The notes below the pieces were generated by a model. That model made no database searches and was not told the DNA's origin. It saw only the letters and a list, made by a program, of their open reading frames with translations. A program made the position numbers and the translations under genes. Shown piece by piece: positions 1 through 36,912 of a stretch of 36,912 nucleotides of DNA. Source of the DNA: a virus; IMG/VR virus record IMGVR_UViG_3300027895_000003. One strand, 5' to 3'. Each line of letters begins with the position of its first letter. Within the stretch, counting starts at the first letter, position 1.

Positions 1-127
1 ACGTACTGCCCCCAATCTCTGTCACTCGAGGGCCATGTGTAGATGGTGAGGGGTCCGGTCGCATCGGGCTCGAACTTGATGGCGCCGTTGTGGTCGTAGA
101 CGATGCCTCGTTGTCCGTTCTTGGGCT
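1..127. repeat. Terminal direct repeat, copy 1 (identical to 36786..36912); assembly overlap of a circular or circularly permuted genome
   Basis: Base-by-base comparison of the window start and end gives an exact 127-nt match. The terL reading frame is continuous across the junction. Confidence 0.95.
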
Positions 128-2442: not shown

Positions 2443-2826
2443 ATGCCGATGTCAGTGAAGGCCTTTGGTGCAGCGAACGACATACTGGCTGGTCGTGGCA
2501 GCGTGACCGTGGACGTAGCGCTAGCTGCTGTAGCCGGATCAGCCGGCATCGTGGCACTCGCCAAGCGGATCAAGCTGTGGGACAAGCTCGACGCGGTGGA
2601 GCAGGCCGAAGCCGAGGCGCTCGACGCCGACGCACCGCGTGGTTGGTGGAGAGCGGTTCAGGACAGCCTCAGCTCGACGATGTTCCTCGGTCGCCATGTG
2701 TCGTGGCGGCACGGTCAGCGCGATCTGGCGCACGGCAGGAGCGGCTACAGCGCTGGTCTCAACGAGCAAGGTGAGCTGGTCGTCACCACGCCTGTTCTCG
2801 ACGAGGAGAGCGGAACGCTCGTCTAA
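2443..2826 (+). CDS. Hypothetical membrane protein (127 aa); the only convincing plus-strand protein gene
   Basis: ATG 2443 has GGAG 7 nt upstream. GC3 is moderately high. There is one TM-like segment (VDVALAAVAGSAGIVALA). Its TAA stop (2824..2826) overlaps the TAG stop (2823..2825) of the convergent minus-strand gene. Confidence 0.6.
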   Translation: MPMSVKAFGAANDILAGRGSVTVDVALAAVAGSAGIVALAKRIKLWDKLDAVEQAEAEALDADAPRGWWRAVQDSLSSTMFLGRHVSWRHGQRDLAHGRSGYSAGLNEQGELVVTTPVLDEESGTLV

Positions 2827-2969
2827 CGGCGCTTGTGCTTGCGTCCCGGTCGACGCCTGGCGTTGGACAACGCAGCAGCAACGGCTTGCTTCTGGGAATG
2901 GCCTGAGTCGACCATCTCGCGGATGTTGTTGCTCACCGTCTTGCGTGAGCTGCCCGGTGAGAGCGGCAT
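2823..2969 (-). CDS. Small basic protein (48 aa): MPLSPGSSRKTVSNNIREMVDSGHSQKQAVAAALSNARRRPGRKHKRR
   Basis: The ATG shares its A with the upstream TGA (TGATG). The ..KQAVAAALSNARR.. motif resembles a small basic protein family I recall (DUF6496-like), but this is unverified. The C-terminal tail is polybasic. Confidence 0.6.
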   Translation of the reverse strand: MPLSPGSSRKTVSNNIREMVDSGHSQKQAVAAALSNARRRPGRKHKRR

Positions 2970-3295
2970 CAGATCGGTCGCTCGGTGACTGGGAACGTCG
3001 TGGCGTTGACCACTTCGACCGCTCCGGTGCCCACCCATTCGACTGTCCACGTGCCCCACTTCGCCGTGGTGTCGAGCGTGACGCTGTAGAAGCCGGTCGA
3101 GATGCGACTGATCGAGCCTGAGACGCCGTATTGCCAGACCACCGGGGCCACGCCTGAGTTCAGCACCTCGTACTTGAAGAAGATCGTGGTCGGGTCGACG
3201 AGTGTCGACGTGCCCGGTGGGCTGTAGAACAGGCCGACGCAAGTGACCGCGGTGCCGTCGTAGGTGGGGCTCGGAAGCGAGTTGGTGATCGTCAT
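2969..3295 (-). CDS. Hypothetical beta-rich virion/fibre-associated protein (108 aa)
   Basis: High-GC3 ORF coupled to the upstream GH16-like gene by an ATGA overlap. Composition is typical of Ig-like/beta-sandwich phage proteins. Confidence 0.6.
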   Translation of the reverse strand: MTITNSLPSPTYDGTAVTCVGLFYSPPGTSTLVDPTTIFFKYEVLNSGVAPVVWQYGVSGSISRISTGFYSVTLDTTAKWGTWTVEWVGTGAVEVVNATTFPVTERPI

Positions 3296-4548
3296 GAGAG
3301 CTGAATCCTTATCTGTGGCGACTCGAGGCCGATGTCACACGTTCCCGCCGTGCCCGGCTCGCGCAGGGTCAACGTCATCGAGCCACCGAACGTGAACGCG
3401 GTGGTGAGCGAGACCTCGTTGCTCGCCACTTCCATTGCGCCACTCAGGTTGAACGCGGCCATGATGTTGACCGTCGACCCGCCGATGGTCGACGCCATCG
3501 CGCCGTTGAGCGCGAATGCGCTGGTCAAACCCTGTGGCGTGGCGTTGACCGTGTTCGTCATGGCCCAGCCGATGGCGAAGCTCGACGAGACGGACGTGAC
3601 CGGTGAGTAGCTGTACGCCTGGATCTCGGCTACGTCCAAAGCTCCAGCGTAGGACCCATAACCACCGGTTCCTGGTCCCGATCCCTGCTCGCAGCCCGTC
3701 CACGCGTAGCCCGACGCACTCGAGTCCCACATCTCGACGTGGCAGATGATGATGTAGGGCTGCGCGGTGATCCCGCCCGAAATGGCTGAGCTGAGAATGT
3801 GCCAACGCTGCACGCCGTTGACGTAGCCCGAGATGTGGCTGCCCGGCACCCACTCGAAGCCGAACACGTTGAAGGTGGCTGTGAAGTCGGTCGGGCTCAG
3901 GTTCGGGAACGTCTGGTTTGTGTAGGTGCCGGCATTGTCCTGGTATGCAGTACCGAGCGGGTAGTTCACGCACGTGGTCGTCGTGGCTCCGACCTGCTTG
4001 GACAAGGTTGGTTGCACGAAGTCCATCTCGTTGTTCGCGCCACCTGACGCCGGCAGGAACCACAGCGTCGAGTTGATCCCGTTCTGAATATTGGTCGAAA
4101 GTTTCAAGTTGCCTTGCACGTACCAACCGGCTTCTGGAAGCACAAAACTGGCCGTGGAGACGCTGTTCATGACGCTCGGCATCCGCGCGCTGGTGATCGA
4201 GCCCGAGGCGTACTGGTAATAGCCCGCCGTCGTGCCGTTGCCCCACAGGCCGTTCGGTTCGCACACGATGGTCAATCCGTCGTTGACCTGGAGATATTCT
4301 GGATGCCAGAGGTTGCACGTGACGCCGTTGAACGTGCCGGCGCTGCCCTTGAGGTTGGGGCCCGTGTACGGGCTGGGCAACGTGCCGCCGAAGGTGCCAC
4401 CGCTGTTGTTGTAGACCGATCCGCCGGCGCCCATCATCGGGCACCATTTCGTGGTGTCCAGTGATGTGGTCAAGAACTGGTCGTCGTAGATCAGCTGGCC
4501 GGAGTTGTAGCCGGCCGGCGGGGGCATCTGCGCTTGGCCGAACCCCAC
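3292..4548 (-). CDS. Tail fibre/receptor-binding protein with a GH16-like (ConA-like glucanase fold) domain and a C-terminal triple repeat (418 aa)
   Basis: Motifs DDQFLTTSLDTTKW, LWFLPA and EMDFVQ (4012..4029) match the GH16 pattern DxF..LD..W / WPAxW / ExDxxE, except that the last E is Q. The C-terminus carries three xxAFxLxGAM-type repeats. Confidence 0.6.
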   Translation of the reverse strand: MGFGQAQMPPPAGYNSGQLIYDDQFLTTSLDTTKWCPMMGAGGSVYNNSGGTFGGTLPSPYTGPNLKGSAGTFNGVTCNLWHPEYLQVNDGLTIVCEPNGLWGNGTTAGYYQYASGSITSARMPSVMNSVSTASFVLPEAGWYVQGNLKLSTNIQNGINSTLWFLPASGGANNEMDFVQPTLSKQVGATTTTCVNYPLGTAYQDNAGTYTNQTFPNLSPTDFTATFNVFGFEWVPGSHISGYVNGVQRWHILSSAISGGITAQPYIIICHVEMWDSSASGYAWTGCEQGSGPGTGGYGSYAGALDVAEIQAYSYSPVTSVSSSFAIGWAMTNTVNATPQGLTSAFALNGAMASTIGGSTVNIMAAFNLSGAMEVASNEVSLTTAFTFGGSMTLTLREPGTAGTCDIGLESPQIRIQLS

Positions 4549-5400: not shown

Positions 5401-5598
5401 CTACTTTCTCTTCGATCCTCGGTGGTGCCATTTCTTCGCATTCTTGGCGAAGTTGGCCCGCTGCTTCTCCTTCTTCGACGCCTTGGGGTTGTTGAGCACG
5501 CTGGTCGCGTGCTTCTGCACGCTCTGACCAGCCTTCTTGGCCGATGCGGTGAACTTGCCGCGGTTGGCTGGGTCGATGTGGATGCCTGAGGCTGCCAT
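5401..5598 (-). CDS. Small basic protein (65 aa): MAASGIHIDPANRGKFTASAKKAGQSVQKHATSVLNNPKASKKEKQRANFAKNAKKWHHRGSKRK
   Basis: TGATG coupling to the upstream gene. It is strongly Lys-rich with a polybasic C-terminus. Confidence 0.6.
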   Translation of the reverse strand: MAASGIHIDPANRGKFTASAKKAGQSVQKHATSVLNNPKASKKEKQRANFAKNAKKWHHRGSKRK

Positions 5599-27888: not shown

Positions 27889-28860
27889 CTAGCCGGTGAG
27901 GGCCGTGAACCGGCCTTGACGTGAGATGTTCCCGCAGACGAGGTTGCCGGCCCACAGCAAAAGGGCGGTCATGGCGTCCTGGTTGACCGGGGTCTGGAAG
28001 TCCTGCAGCTTGAAGTTGGCCATCTCCGAGACGATCAGCTCGAAGTAGTCCTCGTTCAAGAAGAACGGTCCACCCAGCGCGGCGGTCGAGCCGACGTGGG
28101 AGTCGGTGACCCACGGCACGCCGTTGAAGAGCAGGTTCTCGAAACCGCTCTGGGCGAGCTGGATGTCCTTGCCGCCCGGCTGGACCGGGAACTGCTGCGG
28201 CGTGAGGTTCAGGTTCCAGTAGCGGCTGTAGTTGGTGTTGTTGGACACGATGATCGTCGGGCTGCGGCCACCGCTGGTGCAGTTCATGAACAGCGTGTTG
28301 AGGGCCACGAGGCTCATGGTCGTCGTCGACGAGTCGATCTGGCTGTTCCACCACGAGTTGGCCGAGTGGCTGATCGTGGCGTAGGTGGCTTCGACCGTGC
28401 CGTTGTCGACGACCTCGATCAGGCCGTCGATCTGGAGCGGCAGGGCGATACCGTCACCGAAGAGCCCTGTGCCCAGCGTGTCGAACAGGTCCATCTCGGC
28501 CTGCTTGAACTGGGTGGCGATGTAGTCCACGATCGAGTCGGCGCCGTCAGTACGGAGCAGCGTCAACCCGTCGACCGTGACGGCACTGTAGGCCTGCTTC
28601 CAGGCCAGAGCGCCGTTCTGGATCGAGTCCGTCGGCTGGACGTTGAGGAGTTGGTAGCCCGAGTACCAGCCGCCGGCCGCCATCTTGGTGTACATGAGCG
28701 GGAACTCGATCTGGGTCCCGCCCTTGATGACGATCTTGTTCATCTTGTTCCACCGGGCGAACAAGACGTTGGAGCCGTAGATGTTGTCCACGATCCTCGG
28801 GACGATGTAACGCCTGGCAATCGCCGTGACTGTGTTCGTCCCGATCGCGGTGACTGCCAT
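27889..28860 (-). CDS. Major capsid protein (323 aa)
   Basis: It follows the scaffold gene, has the strongest codon bias in the window, and is of typical HK97-fold MCP size. A GGAG SD lies 9 nt upstream. Confidence 0.7.
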   Translation of the reverse strand: MAVTAIGTNTVTAIARRYIVPRIVDNIYGSNVLFARWNKMNKIVIKGGTQIEFPLMYTKMAAGGWYSGYQLLNVQPTDSIQNGALAWKQAYSAVTVDGLTLLRTDGADSIVDYIATQFKQAEMDLFDTLGTGLFGDGIALPLQIDGLIEVVDNGTVEATYATISHSANSWWNSQIDSSTTTMSLVALNTLFMNCTSGGRSPTIIVSNNTNYSRYWNLNLTPQQFPVQPGGKDIQLAQSGFENLLFNGVPWVTDSHVGSTAALGGPFFLNEDYFELIVSEMANFKLQDFQTPVNQDAMTALLLWAGNLVCGNISRQGRFTALTG

Positions 28861-28863
28861 TTC

Positions 28864-29244
28864 CTACGCTCCTAGCTCGGATGGACGTGCTGCGGAAAAG
28901 TGTGTCCCACCACTCTTCGGCTTTGCAAGGGCTATGCCGACACCTCTTGCTGCGTGCCCACGACGAATGTTCTCCTGCCTCGTGACCGCTTCAAGATGGT
29001 CTGGGTTGACACACCCGCGGTTTCGACAAAGGTGGTCCAGATCGAGTCCGTCGGGGATAGGACCGACATAGATCTCGTAGGAAGCCCGGTGCGCTTGGCG
29101 GCAGCGACCGCCGTTCTCGATGCGTCCCCCAGCCCAGAACCGGCCGTATCCACCGCGCTGCAAGGAAGCTTGCCACTCCCAGCACCCAGCGTCACCGCCT
29201 CGGAGATACTGGGATTCAAACCGTCTCTCGTCCTGGGCGTTCAC
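28864..29244 (-). CDS. Free-standing HNH (HNH_3-type) homing endonuclease (126 aa from GTG 29244; 134 aa if from GTG 29268)
   Basis: CWEW....GGYGRF...AHRASYEIYVGPIP.GLDLDHLCRNRGCVNPDHLEAVT..EN is a canonical motif. GC3 is markedly lower than in the flanking scaffold and capsid genes. Confidence 0.8.
   Translation of the reverse strand: MNAQDERRFESQYLRGGDAGCWEWQASLQRGGYGRFWAGGRIENGGRCRQAHRASYEIYVGPIPDGLDLDHLCRNRGCVNPDHLEAVTRQENIRRGHAARGVGIALAKPKSGGTHFSAARPSELGA
29160..29173. promoter_or_regulatory. GCAAG-N4-CTTGC palindrome (GCAAGGAAGCTTGC) inside the HNH gene
   Basis: Exact instance of the recurrent motif. Confidence 0.4.
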
Positions 29245-30140
29245 AGAATATTTTGGTCCTTGAGCCACGCGGCCGCGGCGGCCTTGGCCGCGTGATCCGT
29301 GCTGAGATCAGGCTTCGGCTCCTGTCTCGGAGCCGATCCTGACGATCCGCTGAGCGCGTTCAGCTTGCCCTTGCGTTCCTGTGCCTTGGCCTTCTTCTCG
29401 TCAGCCGGTGAAGGAGTGGCTACCGCCCTGGCTCGGAACTCTGGGTGGTCCCAGTACGCAATATCCAGGGCTTTGAGGATGGCCTCGGGACCGCTGCGCG
29501 TGCGGGCCAGGCCGTCGATGATGTCGAGGCTGACCGCGTGCAGGCGGAGCTTGGAGATGTCGTCCTCGGTCAACTCGGGATGTGACGTGCGGAAGGTGGA
29601 GATGCCCAGTTCGGCGTCGTTGGTGGCGCGGGCGACGGCCTGCTGTTGAGCGATCTGCTGCTGGTTGCCGGCGATCGCCGCCACCTGCTTCTCGAGTTCC
29701 TGTTGGCGCGTCCACATCGCCATCTGGGCCGGGTCGTCCTGGTCCAACCATTCGGGCGGCTTGGGTGGTTCGGGTGGCGGGGCGGCTGCCTTCTCGCGTT
29801 CGAGAAGCGTCTTGACCGCCTCTTCAACAGGGACCTCGCGCCCATCGATGACGACGACACCACGGGAAGAGGGCGGGGCCTGGGCCACTGCTGGAGCAGG
29901 CTCCGCAGGCGTAGGGTCCGGCTCTGGCTCTACCTCGGGCTCTTCGTCGACGACCTCTTCGGGCTCGTCGGAGGTTGGTGCTTGGAGGCCGAACTGCTCT
30001 TGAAGGCGCGCCACCATCGCTTCGGCTTCGGCTTGCTCTTCGGGTGAGAGTTCGATTCCAAGGTCGAGTTCAGCGGCCAGGGCTTCTGGGTCAGGCTCAT
30101 CGGCCTCGGGTTCGTCGCCGGTCGGGCGGGTGTCAGCCAC
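29241..30140 (-). CDS. Scaffolding protein (299 aa)
   Basis: Highly acidic N-terminus, Pro/Glu-rich linker and helical Q/A-rich core. It sits in the usual scaffold position upstream of the capsid gene, with only the HNH gene intervening. Confidence 0.6.
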   Translation of the reverse strand: MADTRPTGDEPEADEPDPEALAAELDLGIELSPEEQAEAEAMVARLQEQFGLQAPTSDEPEEVVDEEPEVEPEPDPTPAEPAPAVAQAPPSSRGVVVIDGREVPVEEAVKTLLEREKAAAPPPEPPKPPEWLDQDDPAQMAMWTRQQELEKQVAAIAGNQQQIAQQQAVARATNDAELGISTFRTSHPELTEDDISKLRLHAVSLDIIDGLARTRSGPEAILKALDIAYWDHPEFRARAVATPSPADEKKAKAQERKGKLNALSGSSGSAPRQEPKPDLSTDHAAKAAAAAWLKDQNIL

Positions 30141-30525: not shown

Positions 30526-30684
30526 CTAGGGGCGAACGTCTTGGGGCGGGTGAGGCTCGCGGCGCATGATGTCCACGTCCGAGCCGTAGGCGCCAGAGTC
30601 GGTCTGGCCCTGCATTTGCACGTTCGTCTTGCCGCCCTTGCCCATGTAATTGGACGCCGCGCGGTTGACGGGGGTGGTTGCCAT
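30526..30684 (-). CDS. Micro-protein (52 aa): MATTPVNRAASNYMGKGGKTNVQMQGQTDSGAYGSDVDIMRREPHPPQDVRP
   Basis: AAAGGA SD lies 5 nt upstream of the ATG. It is below the ORF-track cutoff. Confidence 0.45.
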   Translation of the reverse strand: MATTPVNRAASNYMGKGGKTNVQMQGQTDSGAYGSDVDIMRREPHPPQDVRP

Positions 30685-30762
30685 TGGATTCCTTTGATCG
30701 AAGAAGTTGGGCGGGGCAGGGCGGCGTGTCGGCTACCGCCCCACCCCGTTAGCGCTCACAAG

Positions 30763-30807
30763 CTACTTGCGCTTGTGGCGGCCTCCGTGACGCTTTCCAC
30801 GAGCCAT
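30763..30807 (-). CDS. Polybasic micro-ORF (14 aa): MARGKRHGGRHKRK
   Basis: AGGAAGGGGGG lies upstream. It shares MARxG and HGG(R/H) with the 41-aa peptide at 31256..31381. An alternative 19-aa GTG frame exists, so this call is tentative. Confidence 0.3.
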   Translation of the reverse strand: MARGKRHGGRHKRK

Positions 30808-30842
30808 TTTATCACCACCCCCCTTCCTGAAATGAGATGGGA

Positions 30843-31163
30843 CTAGGACGACACGCCGTCGTCAGCGAGGGGCGCTGGGGGCGTGTCGGTCGGGATGACG
30901 GGGCCGGTGACCGCGATGGTCTCGTCGGTCTTGGGCGCCGGCTGGGCCGGGGTCGGGGCGGGCGTGACGACCGGCTGGCCGCCCACGGTGTGCACCGGCT
31001 CTTCGATCGGCTGGGTCGGCAGCTCGGTCTGGCCGGCGTCGGTCGTCAGGGTCGCACCGGTCAGCTTGTGGCCGATGGCTTCGAGGTCGTCGACCAGCTT
31101 GAGGATGACTTCCTCGAGGTCGGTCTCGAGCGCCTGGCCCGTGAGGTGAAGATTCCACGCCAT
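30843..31163 (-). CDS. Acidic Pro/Thr-rich protein (106 aa)
   Basis: Good codon bias. ATG 31163 lies 3 nt after the upstream stop. Confidence 0.55.
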   Translation of the reverse strand: MAWNLHLTGQALETDLEEVILKLVDDLEAIGHKLTGATLTTDAGQTELPTQPIEEPVHTVGGQPVVTPAPTPAQPAPKTDETIAVTGPVIPTDTPPAPLADDGVSS

Positions 31164-31166
31164 GTT

Positions 31167-31256
31167 CTACCTGCGCTTTCCTGAGCGACGGTTGCCGAAT
31201 CGCCTCGCGCCCGATGACTTGCCGGGGGTCTTGAAGACGAGGGACTTGAAGGGCAT
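31167..31256 (-). CDS. Polybasic micro-protein (29 aa): MPFKSLVFKTPGKSSGARRFGNRRSGKRR
   Basis: TGATG coupling to the upstream micro-ORF. It is below the ORF-track cutoff. Confidence 0.45.
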   Translation of the reverse strand: MPFKSLVFKTPGKSSGARRFGNRRSGKRR

Positions 31257-31381
31257 CAGCGGCGGCCCATCTTGCGCTGCGTCTGGCGCGGCACGCGGGC
31301 ATTGGAACTCAGCCGGTGACCGCCGTGCGGCGTGCCCTTGTTGTGCGTCTTGATCTGGCCTCGCGAGCCGCTACGTGCCAT
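31256..31381 (-). CDS. Polybasic micro-protein (41 aa): MARSGSRGQIKTHNKGTPHGGHRLSSNARVPRQTQRKMGRR
   Basis: GAGAGGAA SD lies 5 nt upstream. It overlaps the upstream gene by 11 nt. GC3 is high. It is below the ORF-track cutoff. Confidence 0.5.
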   Translation of the reverse strand: MARSGSRGQIKTHNKGTPHGGHRLSSNARVPRQTQRKMGRR

Positions 31382-31628
31382 CGGCATTCCTCTCTGGTCT
31401 CTCAGCGGCGAAGTCGTCGCGGAATGGTCTGATGCGTGACATGTGCCCCGTGTTCTCCTGGTCGCACAGGTCGAAGTCGCGCCCGTCGGGGTAGCGCGGC
31501 ATGGCGCGATGGCCGTCGGCGATGCGGATCATGACCGCGTTGGCGTCGCTCTTGGCGTCGCCGTTGGGGTAGGTGGCGTTGGCCCGGTCAGCGATGTCCC
31601 TGGTCGAGCGCGGCGAACGGGAAGGCAT
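31371..31628 (-). CDS. Hypothetical protein (85 aa)
   Basis: High-GC3 ORF overlapping the WhiB 3' end by 41 nt. Confidence 0.5.
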   Translation of the reverse strand: MPSRSPRSTRDIADRANATYPNGDAKSDANAVMIRIADGHRAMPRYPDGRDFDLCDQENTGHMSRIRPFRDDFAAERPERNADGT

Positions 31629-33096: not shown

Positions 33097-33198
33097 TTAT
33101 TTGCGCTTCCGCCACGCCCGCTTGGAGTCGATGGCGACGATGTACCAGATGACCGCCACCGCCCACACGATGGCGAAGATCAGGCCACCGCTCACCAC
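33097..33198 (-). CDS. TM micro-protein with a polybasic tail (33 aa): VVSGGLIFAIVWAVAVIWYIVAIDSKRAWRKRK
   Basis: The GTG start overlaps the upstream TGA. GC3 is high, unlike the rest of the 72-aa track ORF. Confidence 0.45.
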   Translation of the reverse strand: MVSGGLIFAIVWAVAVIWYIVAIDSKRAWRKRK

Positions 33199-33311
33199 AT
33201 CATCTCGTCCAGCGGGGTGTCGCAGTGCAGGCAGACGCCACCGACCACGATCCGGTGCTGGCACCTCGCCCTGCGTATCGACTTGCGCCACACGGCCATC
33301 AGCCACTTCAT
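33192..33311 (-). CDS. Cys/His micro-protein (39 aa): MKWLMAVWRKSIRRARCQHRIVVGGVCLHCDTPLDEMMW
   Basis: GC3 is very high in this frame. The ATG lies 7 nt after a -10-like hexamer, so the mRNA looks leaderless. It is below the ORF-track cutoff. Confidence 0.45.
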   Translation of the reverse strand: MKWLMAVWRKSIRRARCQHRIVVGGVCLHCDTPLDEMMW

Positions 33312-33347
33312 GCAAGCTATCTTGCGCTCTGCAAGTTCCCTTGTCAA
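33312..33347 (-). promoter_or_regulatory. Candidate promoter (-35 TTGACA, 17-nt spacer, -10 CAAGAT) bracketed by two operator-like palindromes (33312..33325 and 33331..33344)
   Basis: -35 at 33342..33347 overlaps the portal stop. -10 at 33319..33324. The palindromes are GCAAGCTATCTTGC (exact motif) and GCAAGTTCCCTTGT (9/10), 19 bp apart centre to centre. Confidence 0.4.
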
Positions 33348-35188
33348 TGTGGGTGCCCCGTACCCGGCCCCTTCGGCTGCGCGTTGCCCCCTCCTTGCGC
33401 CTTTCCTGCTGCTTGTGCCTGAGCCATCGCGGCGGCTTCGGCCTTCATCCGCTCGACCACCTGTTGCCAGTTCGGCCAGGCGTGGGCCTGGAGCACAGCC
33501 TGGGCGTCGATCGCCTTCATGGCAAAGAGGGCGTCGGCTTCGGCAATGCGGGCCTGGCGAGACGTGGGTGCGGAGCTGCCGGCCTTGACGATCAAGGAGA
33601 ACTTGAGTGGCTCGGCCGCCACCTTCCCGTCGATCATCTTGGGCATGTAGAAGTGCTGGGCCGCAAGCCTTATTGCGGTATCGACCCCGTCGTCTCCGAC
33701 GATGGCGACGACTCGGGGGGCGTCGTAGTTCTGGACGATGAGGTTAGCAACGAGGTTTCCGAGTCCACCCAGGCATCGCTCAAGATTGCGCAGAGCGCTG
33801 CGGATGCGTACAAACCCCGCTTCCTGAGTCGCCTGGACAGTTTGCTGAGCAGGACGCCCAGACGACGGCTGACCCTTCTGGGGACCACTGAGCCCACTGA
33901 TGTTCTCCATTCTCGATATCCAGAACTGCACGGTGTTCATGACGAACTGGGGCAGCTCGGGCGGGGTCATCCAGTGCGGGCCCGGCCCGGCGTTCGCCGC
34001 CTGCTGGGTCGTCTCGACGCGCATCCCGGGCCGGTTCATCATCTGGGTGCGGCTCAAGCCCGAGCCGGCCACGTCCATGAAGACGGGATTGCCGATCAGC
34101 TCAGCGTTTCCTTGGACCGAGCTCAGCAACCTGTCTATGGCGATTTGGCAGGGGGCGAGGTGGCTGACGATGGGGGTAGGCCAGAACTCACCCAGTTCCT
34201 CATCCACAAACCTCTCGTACGGGTGACGGTCATGCTCCCAGAGGTTGACAGCGAGCTCGTCCAACAAGACGGTATGGCCTGTGTAGACGACGACTCTCCA
34301 CTGGTCATAGACGATCTCCTCGTTCTCTCCGTGCGTCTGGTCGGTGGCCTGGCGGACTTCGCGGACGTTCTCCCTGATCCAACACTCCTTGACGTTCACC
34401 CCGTTCTGCAGCATCTGGTCCGACGCCGTCCGGCGGCTCTGACCAGGGAGTCCGTAGACGGTGGAGTTGGACCCAGGCAGGTTGCCGGGATTCGCCATCG
34501 GGTAGTCGGACTGCGGGGCGTAGTCGGGCCGCGTCATGCCCGGGTCCTGCCCGTCGCCGCCCTGTAGCGCCTCCTCTATCAGCGTCTTGGAAGTGGAGGG
34601 GAAGCGCCGCTCGATCTCGGCGTAGCTCATGCGCTTGATCTCGAAGCAGTACTGCATGTCCGCAATCGAAGTTGCGTTGGGGTCGGGGTAGAACTTCCAC
34701 ACGTCGACCCGCTTCATCGCCGCGTTCCCCAGCCCCGAGTCGATGCCCGAGTCCCAGATGGCTTTCAAGATCCCCGCCCCGAACAGGGCCGAGTCCCAGA
34801 TGGAGAGCAGCACCTCGGCGTCCCAGGCCTGCACCTGCCAGTTGGTGTCGAGGATCTGCTCGAGGTGGGTGCCGAGCGTCTGCATGTGGTCCGCGTAAGC
34901 CGAGCCTGGCGTGGCCGAAGGCGCCACGTCGAAGGCCAGCTTCTGGTCCGTGATCCAAGCAATGCGCGACGAGATGATCGGGAAGATCTCCGAGTCGGTC
35001 ACGTTCGCTGACCAGGGCTGGGTGCCGCTGGCCTGGTTCTGCCGGCTGGTGAGCAAGAGGTAGTTGCGACGCCAGGTCGACTGGTACATCTGCTTCTTGT
35101 CCTTGGCCAGCTGGTAGAGCTGGTCCAAGTCGTTAGTCAGCTCGAACTCGTCGAGGGTCGGGGCGTCTTCGACCTGGGTGAGCGTCAT
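33344..35188 (-). CDS. Portal protein (614 aa)
   Basis: Assigned by size and by position downstream of terL and upstream of the scaffold/capsid genes. The N-terminal pattern ..QSTWRRNYLLLTSRQ.. resembles portals from recall. Confidence 0.7.
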   Translation of the reverse strand: MTLTQVEDAPTLDEFELTNDLDQLYQLAKDKKQMYQSTWRRNYLLLTSRQNQASGTQPWSANVTDSEIFPIISSRIAWITDQKLAFDVAPSATPGSAYADHMQTLGTHLEQILDTNWQVQAWDAEVLLSIWDSALFGAGILKAIWDSGIDSGLGNAAMKRVDVWKFYPDPNATSIADMQYCFEIKRMSYAEIERRFPSTSKTLIEEALQGGDGQDPGMTRPDYAPQSDYPMANPGNLPGSNSTVYGLPGQSRRTASDQMLQNGVNVKECWIRENVREVRQATDQTHGENEEIVYDQWRVVVYTGHTVLLDELAVNLWEHDRHPYERFVDEELGEFWPTPIVSHLAPCQIAIDRLLSSVQGNAELIGNPVFMDVAGSGLSRTQMMNRPGMRVETTQQAANAGPGPHWMTPPELPQFVMNTVQFWISRMENISGLSGPQKGQPSSGRPAQQTVQATQEAGFVRIRSALRNLERCLGGLGNLVANLIVQNYDAPRVVAIVGDDGVDTAIRLAAQHFYMPKMIDGKVAAEPLKFSLIVKAGSSAPTSRQARIAEADALFAMKAIDAQAVLQAHAWPNWQQVVERMKAEAAAMAQAQAAGKAQGGGNAQPKGPGTGHPH

Positions 35189-36246: not shown

Positions 36247-36912
36247 TCGTTGTCACCTCACTTGGACCGTAAGGCAGGGCGGGCTCGGTCATCGTACTCC
36301 CAATCGCAATCATGAGGGCGGTCACCGAATCGTCGTTGCCCTTGGGGCTCGACGGTCCCATGTCGTAGGGGCCGAGGTGTACGAAGTTGCACATCTCGTG
36401 GTAGGTCATCTCGTCGTGGATCTTGATGGCCTTCTGGGCCAAGAGGTCGATCACGCACCCCCGGGCCCAGTGCTTGCGCTGCGAGGACATCTGCCAGCCC
36501 CAGGTGATAGCCAACTTGCCGGGCGACTTGTCCGCCCAGCGGTGGCGCCAGATGTTGGGGTAGTCGAGTTGCAACAGGGCACCGATGGTGGCGTAGCCGG
36601 GACCGTTGATCTCTACGTTGAGGAGCGCCTGGTTGTAGTAGTAGGCGAGTCGGATCAGTTCATGGGCGAAGGCAACAGGGTCCATATGCCCATGCCAAAC
36701 GGCAACCTGCTCGAAGGTTCTTCGGTTAAAAACCTGGATGCAAGCTCCGTCGCCATACGTGGTCCGAGAAGGATCTCCGGCCACGACGTACTGCCCCCAA
36801 TCTCTGTCACTCGAGGGCCATGTGTAGATGGTGAGGGGTCCGGTCGCATCGGGCTCGAACTTGATGGCGCCGTTGTGGTCGTAGACGATGCCTCGTTGTC
36901 CGTTCTTGGGCT
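36206..36912 (-). CDS. terL: Terminase large subunit, C-terminal (nuclease) part; 36786..36912 duplicates 1..127
   Basis: The track ORF 36206..36784 starts at an internal GTG. Upstream codons stay open (..KFEPDATGPLTIYTWPSSDRDWGQYVVAGDPSRT..), which is the classic terminase hinge/nuclease-entry pattern. The stop is at 36206. Confidence 0.9.
   Translation of the reverse strand, partial: PKNGQRGIVYDHNGAIKFEPDATGPLTIYTWPSSDRDWGQYVVAGDPSRTTYGDGACIQVFNRRTFEQVAVWHGHMDPVAFAHELIRLAYYYNQALLNVEINGPGYATIGALLQLDYPNIWRHRWADKSPGKLAITWGWQMSSQRKHWARGCVIDLLAQKAIKIHDEMTYHEMCNFVHLGPYDMGPSSPKGNDDSVTALMIAIGSTMTEPALPYGPSEVTTNDLFDKPPWEAFG
36786..36912. repeat. Terminal direct repeat, copy 2 (identical to 1..127)
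   Basis: Same as copy 1. The unique genome length is 36,785 bp. Confidence 0.95.

Follow-up and report, generated by a model that had tools for sequence, protein, structure and literature searches.

Conserved polycationic micro-protein genes between the portal and capsid genes of uncultured soil actinobacterial podophages

The short-tailed phage T7 contains gp6.7 and gp7.3, small virion proteins of the internal and tail-assembly kinds, of which gp6.7 is part of the ejected core (PMC11784390), and the internal proteins IPI, IPII and IPIII of phage T4 carry an N-terminal capsid-targeting sequence, sit with the DNA in the head and leave with it (PMC7697877). Protamine-like viral core proteins have been described elsewhere, namely pVII and mu of adenovirus and P6.9 of baculovirus (PMC10548178, PMC5899202). 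Here we analyse three minus-strand micro-open reading frames (micro-ORFs) of 41, 29 and 14 codons, designated m41, m29 and m14, in the IMG/VR virus record IMGVR_UViG_3300027895_000003, the whole 36,912-nucleotide stretch of which is hereafter referred to as the window. Their predicted products are rich in basic residues (K+R+H of 34% in m41, 34% in m29 and 64% in m14) and contain no acidic residue (D+E of zero in all three). We know of no tailed phage that uses dedicated DNA-condensing peptides. A sequence-only reading of the window had pointed out these ORFs, the TGATG junction between m41 and m29, and their interleaving with an acidic 106-aa protein (p106); each of these was found exactly where that reading had placed it (Table 1).

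Comparison with the systems above reveals both shared logic and clear differences. Like T7 gp6.7 and gp7.3, the micro-proteins are small and encoded beside the portal gene of a short-tailed phage; however, the T7 proteins comprise 88-99 aa with defined structures and their genes lie upstream of the portal rather than in the portal-scaffold interval, and Pfam searches with m41 and m29 at E-values up to 10 returned neither DUF5476 (T7 gp6.7) nor any other match. The T4 internal proteins combine a targeting sequence with cargo, which is the logic of the docking motif and tail that we propose below, and candidates for such N-terminal targeting sequences would be the conserved motifs MPFKSLIFKT in m29 and MPLKS or MPFKS in fused forms of m14. 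Nevertheless, the T4 proteins are much larger, are processed by the prohead protease and share no homology with the micro-proteins; no prohead protease was recognised among the window proteins scanned. With the protamine-like core proteins the micro-proteins share an extreme K/R content, the lack of acidic residues and a proposed (here putative) role in genome condensation, but those proteins belong to eukaryotic viruses and are unrelated in sequence. A further likeness is to phrog_2423, a family distantly resembling DUF6496, whose members of 41-79 aa bear a disordered polybasic tail and are found in head-morphogenesis modules. In kind m14 resembles this family, and the position of the cassette between portal and capsid genes corresponds to a head-module location of the phrog_2423 type. 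In contrast, the helical-hairpin domain is missing from m41 and m29, for which neither PHROG nor Pfam gave a match, whereas m14, too short for the ~37-aa domain, amounts to a tail-only version with its own Shine-Dalgarno (SD) site; the phrog_2423 family itself is uncharacterised.

Relatives of the window were retrieved as IMG/VR contigs with two anchors, the portal protein and a 52-aa protein encoded immediately downstream of the cassette (p52), the latter recovering 22 viral loci, several of which are duplicate fragments of one contig. We distinguish a close clade of eight independent genomes (the window, L001, L002, L005, L006, L007, L010 and L013) from a distant clade (L017-L030; p52 identity 55-73%). 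All three ORFs are intact, alignable and in the same order in each of the eight close genomes, in which the neighbouring proteins are 31-73% identical, and every insertion or deletion in the micro-ORF alignments is a multiple of three. Pooled Nei-Gojobori ratios of nonsynonymous to synonymous substitution (dN/dS) were 0.40 for m41, 0.42 for m29 and 0.38 for m14, in the range of neighbouring genes (0.40 for the 85-aa upstream protein p85, 0.57 for p106 and 0.20 for p52). Read in the +1 and +2 frames as a control, the same alignments gave 0.97-1.46 overall (m41 1.4, m29 1.3-1.4, m14 1.0-1.2). Furthermore, many invariant residue columns are encoded by at least two synonymous codons (8/11 in m41, 6/9 in m29 and 3/5 in m14). 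The sequence-only reading had suggested examining conservation and Ka/Ks in related genomes, and had named loss of the frames in relatives as one outcome that would speak against it; instead, the frames hold across the close genomes, with in-frame indels and dN/dS of 0.38-0.42. By these comparative criteria, m41, m29 and m14 are real micro-protein genes under purifying selection.

The opposing explanation, that the micro-ORFs are open by chance in DNA of high GC content or represent a non-coding element that is conserved, draws on two observations. Polybasic short ORFs are common by chance in the window, where 26 of 342 ORFs of 13-70 aa in the six frames (65% GC) have a net charge of at least +7, such that polybasic composition is not by itself evidence for coding in DNA of this GC content. 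Also, public gene callers identified m41 at exactly 41 aa and missed m29 and m14. Closer inspection of those 26 ORFs showed them to be almost purely Arg-based, with a median Lys share of 0 and a Lys share of at least 0.3 in m29 and m14 only, where Lys accounts for 40-43% of basic residues. Against chance, frames, starts, stops and SD sites are kept across genomes so divergent that adjacent proteins share 31-58% identity, and dN/dS is close to 0.4 in the proposed frames only. Together, the indel pattern, conserved signals and dN/dS effectively refute this explanation at the level of sequence comparison, and we regard its probability as vanishingly small.

The three peptides differ in how widely they are distributed. 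Both m29 and the m14 peptide also occur in the distant clade: m29 is found in 17 of the 22 loci linked to p52, spanning both clades, as well as in L119, L123, L144 and L150, and m14 has a length of 13-16 aa in the eight close genomes, L014 and L150. For m41, 20 clusters were identified in a 5.8-billion-protein database, 19 of them of 33-42 aa and one a 71-aa fusion, all being unnamed or labelled 'hypothetical protein'. An exhaustive HMMER search of 1.84 billion proteins retrieved five m41 representatives and no distant relatives; a DNA pattern search of viral contigs for MARHKGRHGG returned already known loci only, and a single metagenome scan with a loose pattern gave random Arg-rich matches, with no new relatives among the matches listed. 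The micro-proteins are orphan families specific to one poorly known phage lineage. The 71-aa fusion (P0020; L150 1501..1716, ENA ERZ25039497 contig_53573) reflects a 1-nt insertion, CTGAGCTTCGAAC as compared with CTGAGTTCCAAT in the window, that brings m41 into frame with m29. Past this extra base the original frame still reads SNAHVPRQSQRKMGRKR followed by a stop, and the TGATG junction is kept; given this intact frame, the insertion is likely to be a sequencing error or to have arisen very recently by mutation. A programmed frameshift between m41 and m29 was considered and rejected, the single fused case arising from that 1-nt insertion.

Within each peptide, invariant columns cluster in short motifs, and the tails vary in sequence while staying basic. 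The conserved core of m41, HNKGGxxGGxxxSNARxPR, precedes a variable basic C-terminus, and m29 begins with an invariant-type motif, (M)PFKSLIFKT, followed by a tail of K, R, G and S; m14 in the close clade reads MARHKRGGRKHKR. An alternative in-frame ATG two codons upstream of the m41 start would give a product of 43 aa. The MARxG start that m41 and m14 were previously said to share recurs in many relatives without being present in all, and although the shared HGG can be read in the window, six of the eight m14 orthologues in the close clade lack it and have MARHKRGGR.

Signals for translation are conserved along with the frames. In the window, the end of p85 and the beginning of m41 share 11 nt, and an overlap of the p85 stop with the m41 start is seen in all five genomes with both genes mapped; the m41 ATG at 31381 is preceded at 7 nt by the SD-like AGAGAGGA. 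The stop of m41 and the start of m29 overlap or are directly adjacent in eight of eight genomes (TGATG, TAGTG, TAGGTG or TGAGTG), and the m29 stop abuts the p106 start in the seven genomes with a mapped p106 homologue. Upstream of m14, six of the eight close genomes carry GAGAGGAGGTGA or AAAGGAGGTGAT 5-7 nt before the ATG, the window and L001 having GGGGGTGGTGA at 4 nt. Judged by actinobacterial 16S rRNA 3' ends, these sites are close to an ideal Shine-Dalgarno sequence. The predicted organization is therefore that p85, m41, m29 and p106 are translated as one coupled run and m14 from its own consensus SD. A WhiB-like transcription factor gene is the first of this coupled run and overlaps the p85 start; it also lies upstream of the cassette in those close relatives whose contigs reach far enough (L001, L002, L005, L006 and L007) and in several distant loci. 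Conserved frames, junctions and SD sites, together with dN/dS, thus bear out the earlier description of the micro-ORFs as genuine, translationally coupled genes for polycationic proteins.

One or two strong GC hairpins (11-19 bp stems) occur between m14 and p52 in all eight close genomes, beginning 1-14 nt after the m14 stop and unrelated in sequence from genome to genome. Conservation of structure without sequence suggests an element that splits the WhiB-to-m14 unit from the capsid unit. A scan for consensus terminators found no U-tract after any of these hairpins in the close genomes, and the element may serve in transcription termination, in processing or in stabilising the mRNA. In L017, L018 and L022, a conserved element, TAGGACTyC...GGGTTAAGTCC, follows the m14-type stop.

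Examination of the distant clade revealed that the m14 tail is modular. Its loci keep m29, followed by another basic protein of 36-55 aa; homology of m41 with these proteins was rejected (hhalign probability 0.2%), leaving them as positional analogues. The m14 peptide forms the C-terminus of 59-64-aa proteins in L017-L019, L022, L024-L028 and P0030, and m14 of the window is identical in kind to the tails of the L017-L028 and P0030 proteins. Two mutually unrelated N-terminal domains are involved: one reads 'PFKSExQRRYLWAxHP..AEAWAHG', and the other, of the L024 type, 'PLKSGSSRKTVSSNISEMVxSGxPQKQAVAASLSNAR', is a phrog_2423 domain (E 1.7e-13). In L029 and L030 the m14 peptide is instead a stand-alone ORF of 18 codons. 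Throughout the distant clade, GAAAGGGGGTG or GAAAGGAGGTG precedes the internal ATG of MAR(H/R)KG, and in the fused forms this SD sequence encodes (R/K)KGG; that SD, ATG and polybasic codons are kept while the upstream part varies indicates that this unit is the conserved element. The exception is L021 (2800..2875), where an m14-type peptide, ARHKGRHGGRKKGRK, and its SD are kept with ATC in place of ATG, in a frame that differs from that of the phrog_2423 ORF upstream; no other case was found to lack a canonical start. These comparisons show that the polybasic tail can occur in two settings, on its own as a micro-protein and as a module attached to small domains of different kinds. A tblastn search with the 'PFKSExQRRYLW' domain gave two marginal phage matches only. 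We also observed an M-P-(F/L)-K-S start common to three otherwise unrelated small proteins, namely MPFKSLIFKT of m29, (M)PFKSEAQRRYLW of the L017 protein (3254..3448) and (M)PLKSGSSRK of the phrog_2423 type (2823..2969 in the window; L024 3163..3354), which may be a common docking or processing signal, or a coincidence.

The fusion of m14 to a phrog_2423 domain directs attention to that family, for which at least 154 relatives were found in protein databases. Among the 120 relatives listed, 116 share a ~37-aa phrog_2423 domain followed by a tail (median 12.5 aa, with seven K/R and no D/E), and 113 of these 116 have polybasic tails with a net charge of at least +4. Several family members in cultured phages are associated with head genes, and in KBS-S-2A and phiEap-2 the gene is flanked by portal or MuF genes on one side and scaffold or capsid genes on the other. 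Specifically, the phrog_2423 gene of cyanophage KBS-S-2A directly follows a Mu-F head-morphogenesis gene and that of Enterobacter phage phiEap-2 lies between head-morphogenesis and scaffold genes, both encoding basic tails, and in Acinetobacter phage P919 the domain constitutes residues 1-38 of a head-maturation protease (phrog_2229, E 2e-142; DUF2213). Prohead proteases act inside procapsids, and the P919 fusion is accordingly a Rosetta-stone-type hint that the phrog_2423 domain, and hence an attached polybasic tail, enters the head. Taken together, the m14-phrog_2423 fusion and the presence of phrog_2423 in head modules make a head-associated, DNA-binding role more plausible, while the packaging into virions, charge neutralisation and assistance to ejection suggested by the sequence-only reading stay hypothetical. 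The earlier statement that no system like this had been described needs qualification in this light: small polybasic-tailed proteins are common in phage head modules, even if those are uncharacterised, and the micro-proteins vary a known theme of small basic proteins encoded there.

The window has a phrog_2423 gene of its own (2823..2969), situated outside the head module at the genome's tail-fibre end, with a start that shares one base with the stop of an upstream 108-aa gene. An AlphaFold2 (AF2) model of its product predicts a two-helix hairpin (predicted local distance difference test score, pLDDT, of 85; helices 9-22 and 26-39) with a disordered tail. Foldseek searches with this hairpin model gave no meaningful match (all E > 2), no significant match emerged when the PDB was searched by sequence with profiles of m41, m29 and phrog_2423, and a search for related loci with the 418-aa neighbour of this ORF found none.

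Based on these observations, we propose a model in which each peptide is bipartite, consisting of a short conserved motif (PFKSLIFKT in m29, HNKGG..GG..SNARPPRP in m41) and a disordered tail of K, R, H, G and S; for m14 in some relatives, the role of the motif would be taken by a whole phrog_2423 or 'PFKSExQRRYLW' domain. Translational coupling would yield the peptides in a fixed ratio with their neighbours, each peptide would dock through its motif onto some component of the procapsid or onto one of the acidic proteins, p106 or the scaffold-like protein, and the tail would bind a polyanion, most probably the incoming genome. The peptides would thereby end inside the head as DNA-bound counter-ions and may exit with the DNA. 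In support of this model, the cassette is always located between the portal and the scaffold-like and capsid genes, adjacent to the acidic p106 (-13) and scaffold-like protein (-31). We consider the full model, comprising docking motif and polycationic tail, procapsid entry and genome binding, to be possible while still short of probable.

A number of observations weigh against it. The lineage is uncultured and has no isolated close relative, and family, profile and PDB sequence searches found no homologues of m41 or m29 outside the lineage. The link to the procapsid takes two steps (m14 tail to phrog_2423, phrog_2423 to protease) and is direct for m14 only. The run starts with WhiB, a regulator, which overlaps it; conserved hairpins set the run apart from the p52-p128-scaffold-like-capsid genes; and the portal-scaffold interval also holds clearly non-capsid genes. 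Furthermore, the m41 core is conserved so sharply that a specific partner seems a better fit than neutralisation of charge in general. Finally, one copy of each peptide provides a total charge of about +28 as compared with about 73,600 phosphate charges on the genome, such that any bulk effect would call for copy numbers in the hundreds. A wider proposal, that the m14 unit (SD, ATG and 12-15 basic codons) is a portable 'polycation cassette', used alone or welded to capsid-targeting domains, and forms with m41 and m29 a phage protamine system that is loaded into the procapsid, neutralises and organises the DNA packaged there and is injected with it, seems to us unlikely to hold in full.

Several of the same observations favour a different role, in which the peptides are host-directed effectors made with WhiB that bind host polyanions (nucleoid, RNA, ribosome or polyphosphate), thereby aiding takeover of the cell, and are not virion parts. 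This is a serious rival because of the co-translation with WhiB, which overlaps p85, itself coupled to m41, m29 and p106, and because of the hairpins that separate the unit from the capsid genes in eight of eight close genomes; the specific conserved core of m41 would also fit a defined target. Short arginine-rich peptides are a known RNA-binding design, as exemplified by lambda N and HIV Tat. Tat has also been described as a nucleic-acid chaperone (PMC2425468). Conversely, the micro-proteins show no similarity to small basic ribosomal proteins or to any curated family, the m14 tail is fused to a domain found in head modules and on a head protease, and portal and capsid genes flank the cassette in every case, leaving a host-directed role rather unlikely. 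Mimicry of the small ribosomal proteins bL34, bL36, bL37, bS22 and Thx was specifically searched for and rejected (no NCBIfam match at E <=1 and no Pfam match at E <=10), as was an AT-hook, RGRP and GRP being absent from all three peptides.

The acidic neighbours raise the alternative that the peptides are assembly-only charge partners that transiently neutralise the very acidic scaffold-like protein, p106 or both, acting as chaperones or scaffold-release factors and absent from the mature particle. The strict interleaving and coupling with p106, the proximity to the scaffold-like gene and the acidic positional counterpart that stands beside basic peptides in the distant clade too are consistent with such a role, but there is no sign of physical interaction, the p106 model is of low confidence, and basic-tailed phrog_2423 proteins occur in phages with no obvious acidic neighbour; we judge it decidedly improbable. 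Alternatively, the ORFs might serve as cis-acting translational devices for ribosome delivery, coupling or hairpin control, the peptide being irrelevant. Overlapping stop and start codons throughout the run, the unusually strong m14 SD and, in every close genome, a strong hairpin 1-14 nt past the m14 stop are the features that invite this comparison, and a stop just before a hairpin is indeed shared with leader peptides and upstream open reading frames, by m14 only. Unlike in those elements, the peptide sequences are under selection, with synonymous change at invariant residues, and the m14 peptide is kept both where it ends a larger protein and where another gene lies downstream, no hairpin being followed by a U-tract. 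This makes a purely cis-acting function very improbable. Compared with these alternatives, entry into the head with genome binding is the reading we retain as the working model.

With regard to the genome as a whole, the ends of the window share an exact overlap of 127 bp (1..127 = 36786..36912), equal to the assembler k-mer, which indicates that the contig is a circularly closed, complete genome of 36,785 bp. The window assembly is ENA ERZ923293, from a soil metagenome, and JGI 3300001546 contains an independent assembly of the same genome, of 36,859 bp. Nearly all genes lie on the minus strand, and those of the region are transcribed in the order portal, several small genes, an Ig-like 165-aa protein, a 72-aa membrane protein, WhiB, p85, m41, m29, p106, m14, the GC hairpin, p52, p128, the 299-aa scaffold-like protein, an HNH endonuclease and the major capsid protein. 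The capsid protein is ~30% identical to that of Myxococcus phage Mx8, and the lineage, one of uncultured soil actinobacterial podophages, combines a portal of the P22 type with an Mx8-like capsid protein and WhiB. Of ten large window proteins scanned against PHROG, most stayed without annotation. A megablast comparison of GenBank phages with the cassette region returned no match, and tblastn with the portal, capsid protein and p52 gave remote relatives or none, and no close cultured relative. No match to p52 was found in a scan of bacterial and archaeal genomes, which accordingly yields no prophage copy and no host assignment.

Table 1. Coordinates of the micro-ORFs, their translation signals and other features in the window
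Feature	Coordinates	Strand	Evidence or remark
m41, 41 aa, net charge +11	31256..31381	minus	MARSGSRGQIKTHNKGTPHGGHRLSSNARVPRQTQRKMGRR
m29, 29 aa, net charge +10	31167..31256	minus	ATG and m41 TGA share one base (TGATG)
m14, stand-alone ORF, 14 aa, net charge +7 plus 2 His	30763..30807	minus	MARGKRHGGRHKRK
Consensus Shine-Dalgarno region upstream of m14, GGAAGGGGGGTGGTGAT	30811..30827	minus	strong SD in 8/8 close genomes
GC-rich hairpin, 14-bp stem, beginning 14 nt past the m14 stop	30712..30748	minus	-33.9 kcal/mol, z = -1.6
WhiB-like transcription factor, 103 aa	31588..31899	minus	Pfam Whib, E 6.3e-22
p85, 85 aa, conserved	31371..31628	minus	47-58% identical in relatives
p106, acidic, net charge -13, pI 4.1	30843..31163	minus	homologues aligned
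p52, 52 aa, downstream end of the cassette	30526..30684	minus	92% mean column identity
Scaffold-like protein, 299 aa	29241..30140		net charge -31
HNH endonuclease	28864..29268		Pfam HNH_3, E 6.5e-15
Major capsid protein	27889..28860		NCBIfam capsid_maj_Podo (NF033394), E 2.7e-60
Portal	33344..35188		PF16510 P22_portal
phrog_2423 member, 48 aa, tail RRRPGRKHKRR	2823..2969	minus	phrog_2423, E 1.4e-15
65-aa basic protein, net charge +15	5401..5598	minus	weak PHROG matches
33-aa hydrophobic transmembrane helix with KRAWRKRK anchor	33097..33198	minus	sequence; weak match in L005 only

Among the neighbouring proteins, p52 is more conserved than the capsid protein (mean column identity of ~90% for the latter); it is Gly/Gln-rich with no hydrophobic core, matched no family and nothing in cultured phages, and is probably an important structural component. 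Family-library scans with p85 gave no match, and in the close clade this protein begins MPSxSPRSxRA. The AF2 model of p106, of low confidence (pLDDT 61), comprises a short beta-alpha-beta-beta N-terminal domain and a disordered Pro-rich and acidic tail. The 299-aa protein had previously been called a scaffold; this putative label draws on its position, acidity and conservation, the protein having no family match. Between its gene and that of the capsid protein sits the HNH endonuclease gene, which relatives lack at this position, the sole similar HNH sequence among them being that of L007, where it precedes the portal gene. The window gene has the look of a mobile, homing-type insertion.

Beyond the cassette, the sequence-only reading had grouped three further ORFs as protamine-like peptides. 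This grouping did not survive, the three being unrelated: the phrog_2423 member described above, a member of a widespread 65-aa family and a transmembrane peptide. The 65-aa protein (5401..5598) has more than 130 relatives, 70-77% identical, in unrelated viral contigs of 7-188 kb, including some from human-microbiome samples, and its conservation across very different genomes is unusually high for a small phage gene. Its gene follows those of a 138-aa protein with a C-terminal membrane anchor and of a 68-aa membrane protein, which may form a lysis cassette. The ORF at 33097..33198 would, as read from its sequence, encode a membrane micro-protein and not a protamine-like one; within 33097..33347, it overlaps and competes with a JGI-called 39-aa CxxC ORF (33192..33311) in another frame, both following the portal gene.

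These results demonstrate how ORFs of 13-16 codons, missed by standard gene callers, can be firmly recognised as genes with no more than comparative metagenomics. Whether they act in the head or on the host, the peptides are of a length that permits direct synthesis. If they are host-directed, they would represent a new class of phage micro-effectors acting alongside WhiB in Actinobacteria. If, on the other hand, they reside inside the head, many tailed phages would carry polycationic counter-ions of their own, a strategy that phrog_2423 would make widespread, with a bearing on the physics of DNA packaging, on ejection pressure and on the material that is co-injected. Should the proposal of a protamine system prove true, it would be the first DNA-condensing peptide system described for tailed phages, with phrog_2423 tail proteins as its general form.

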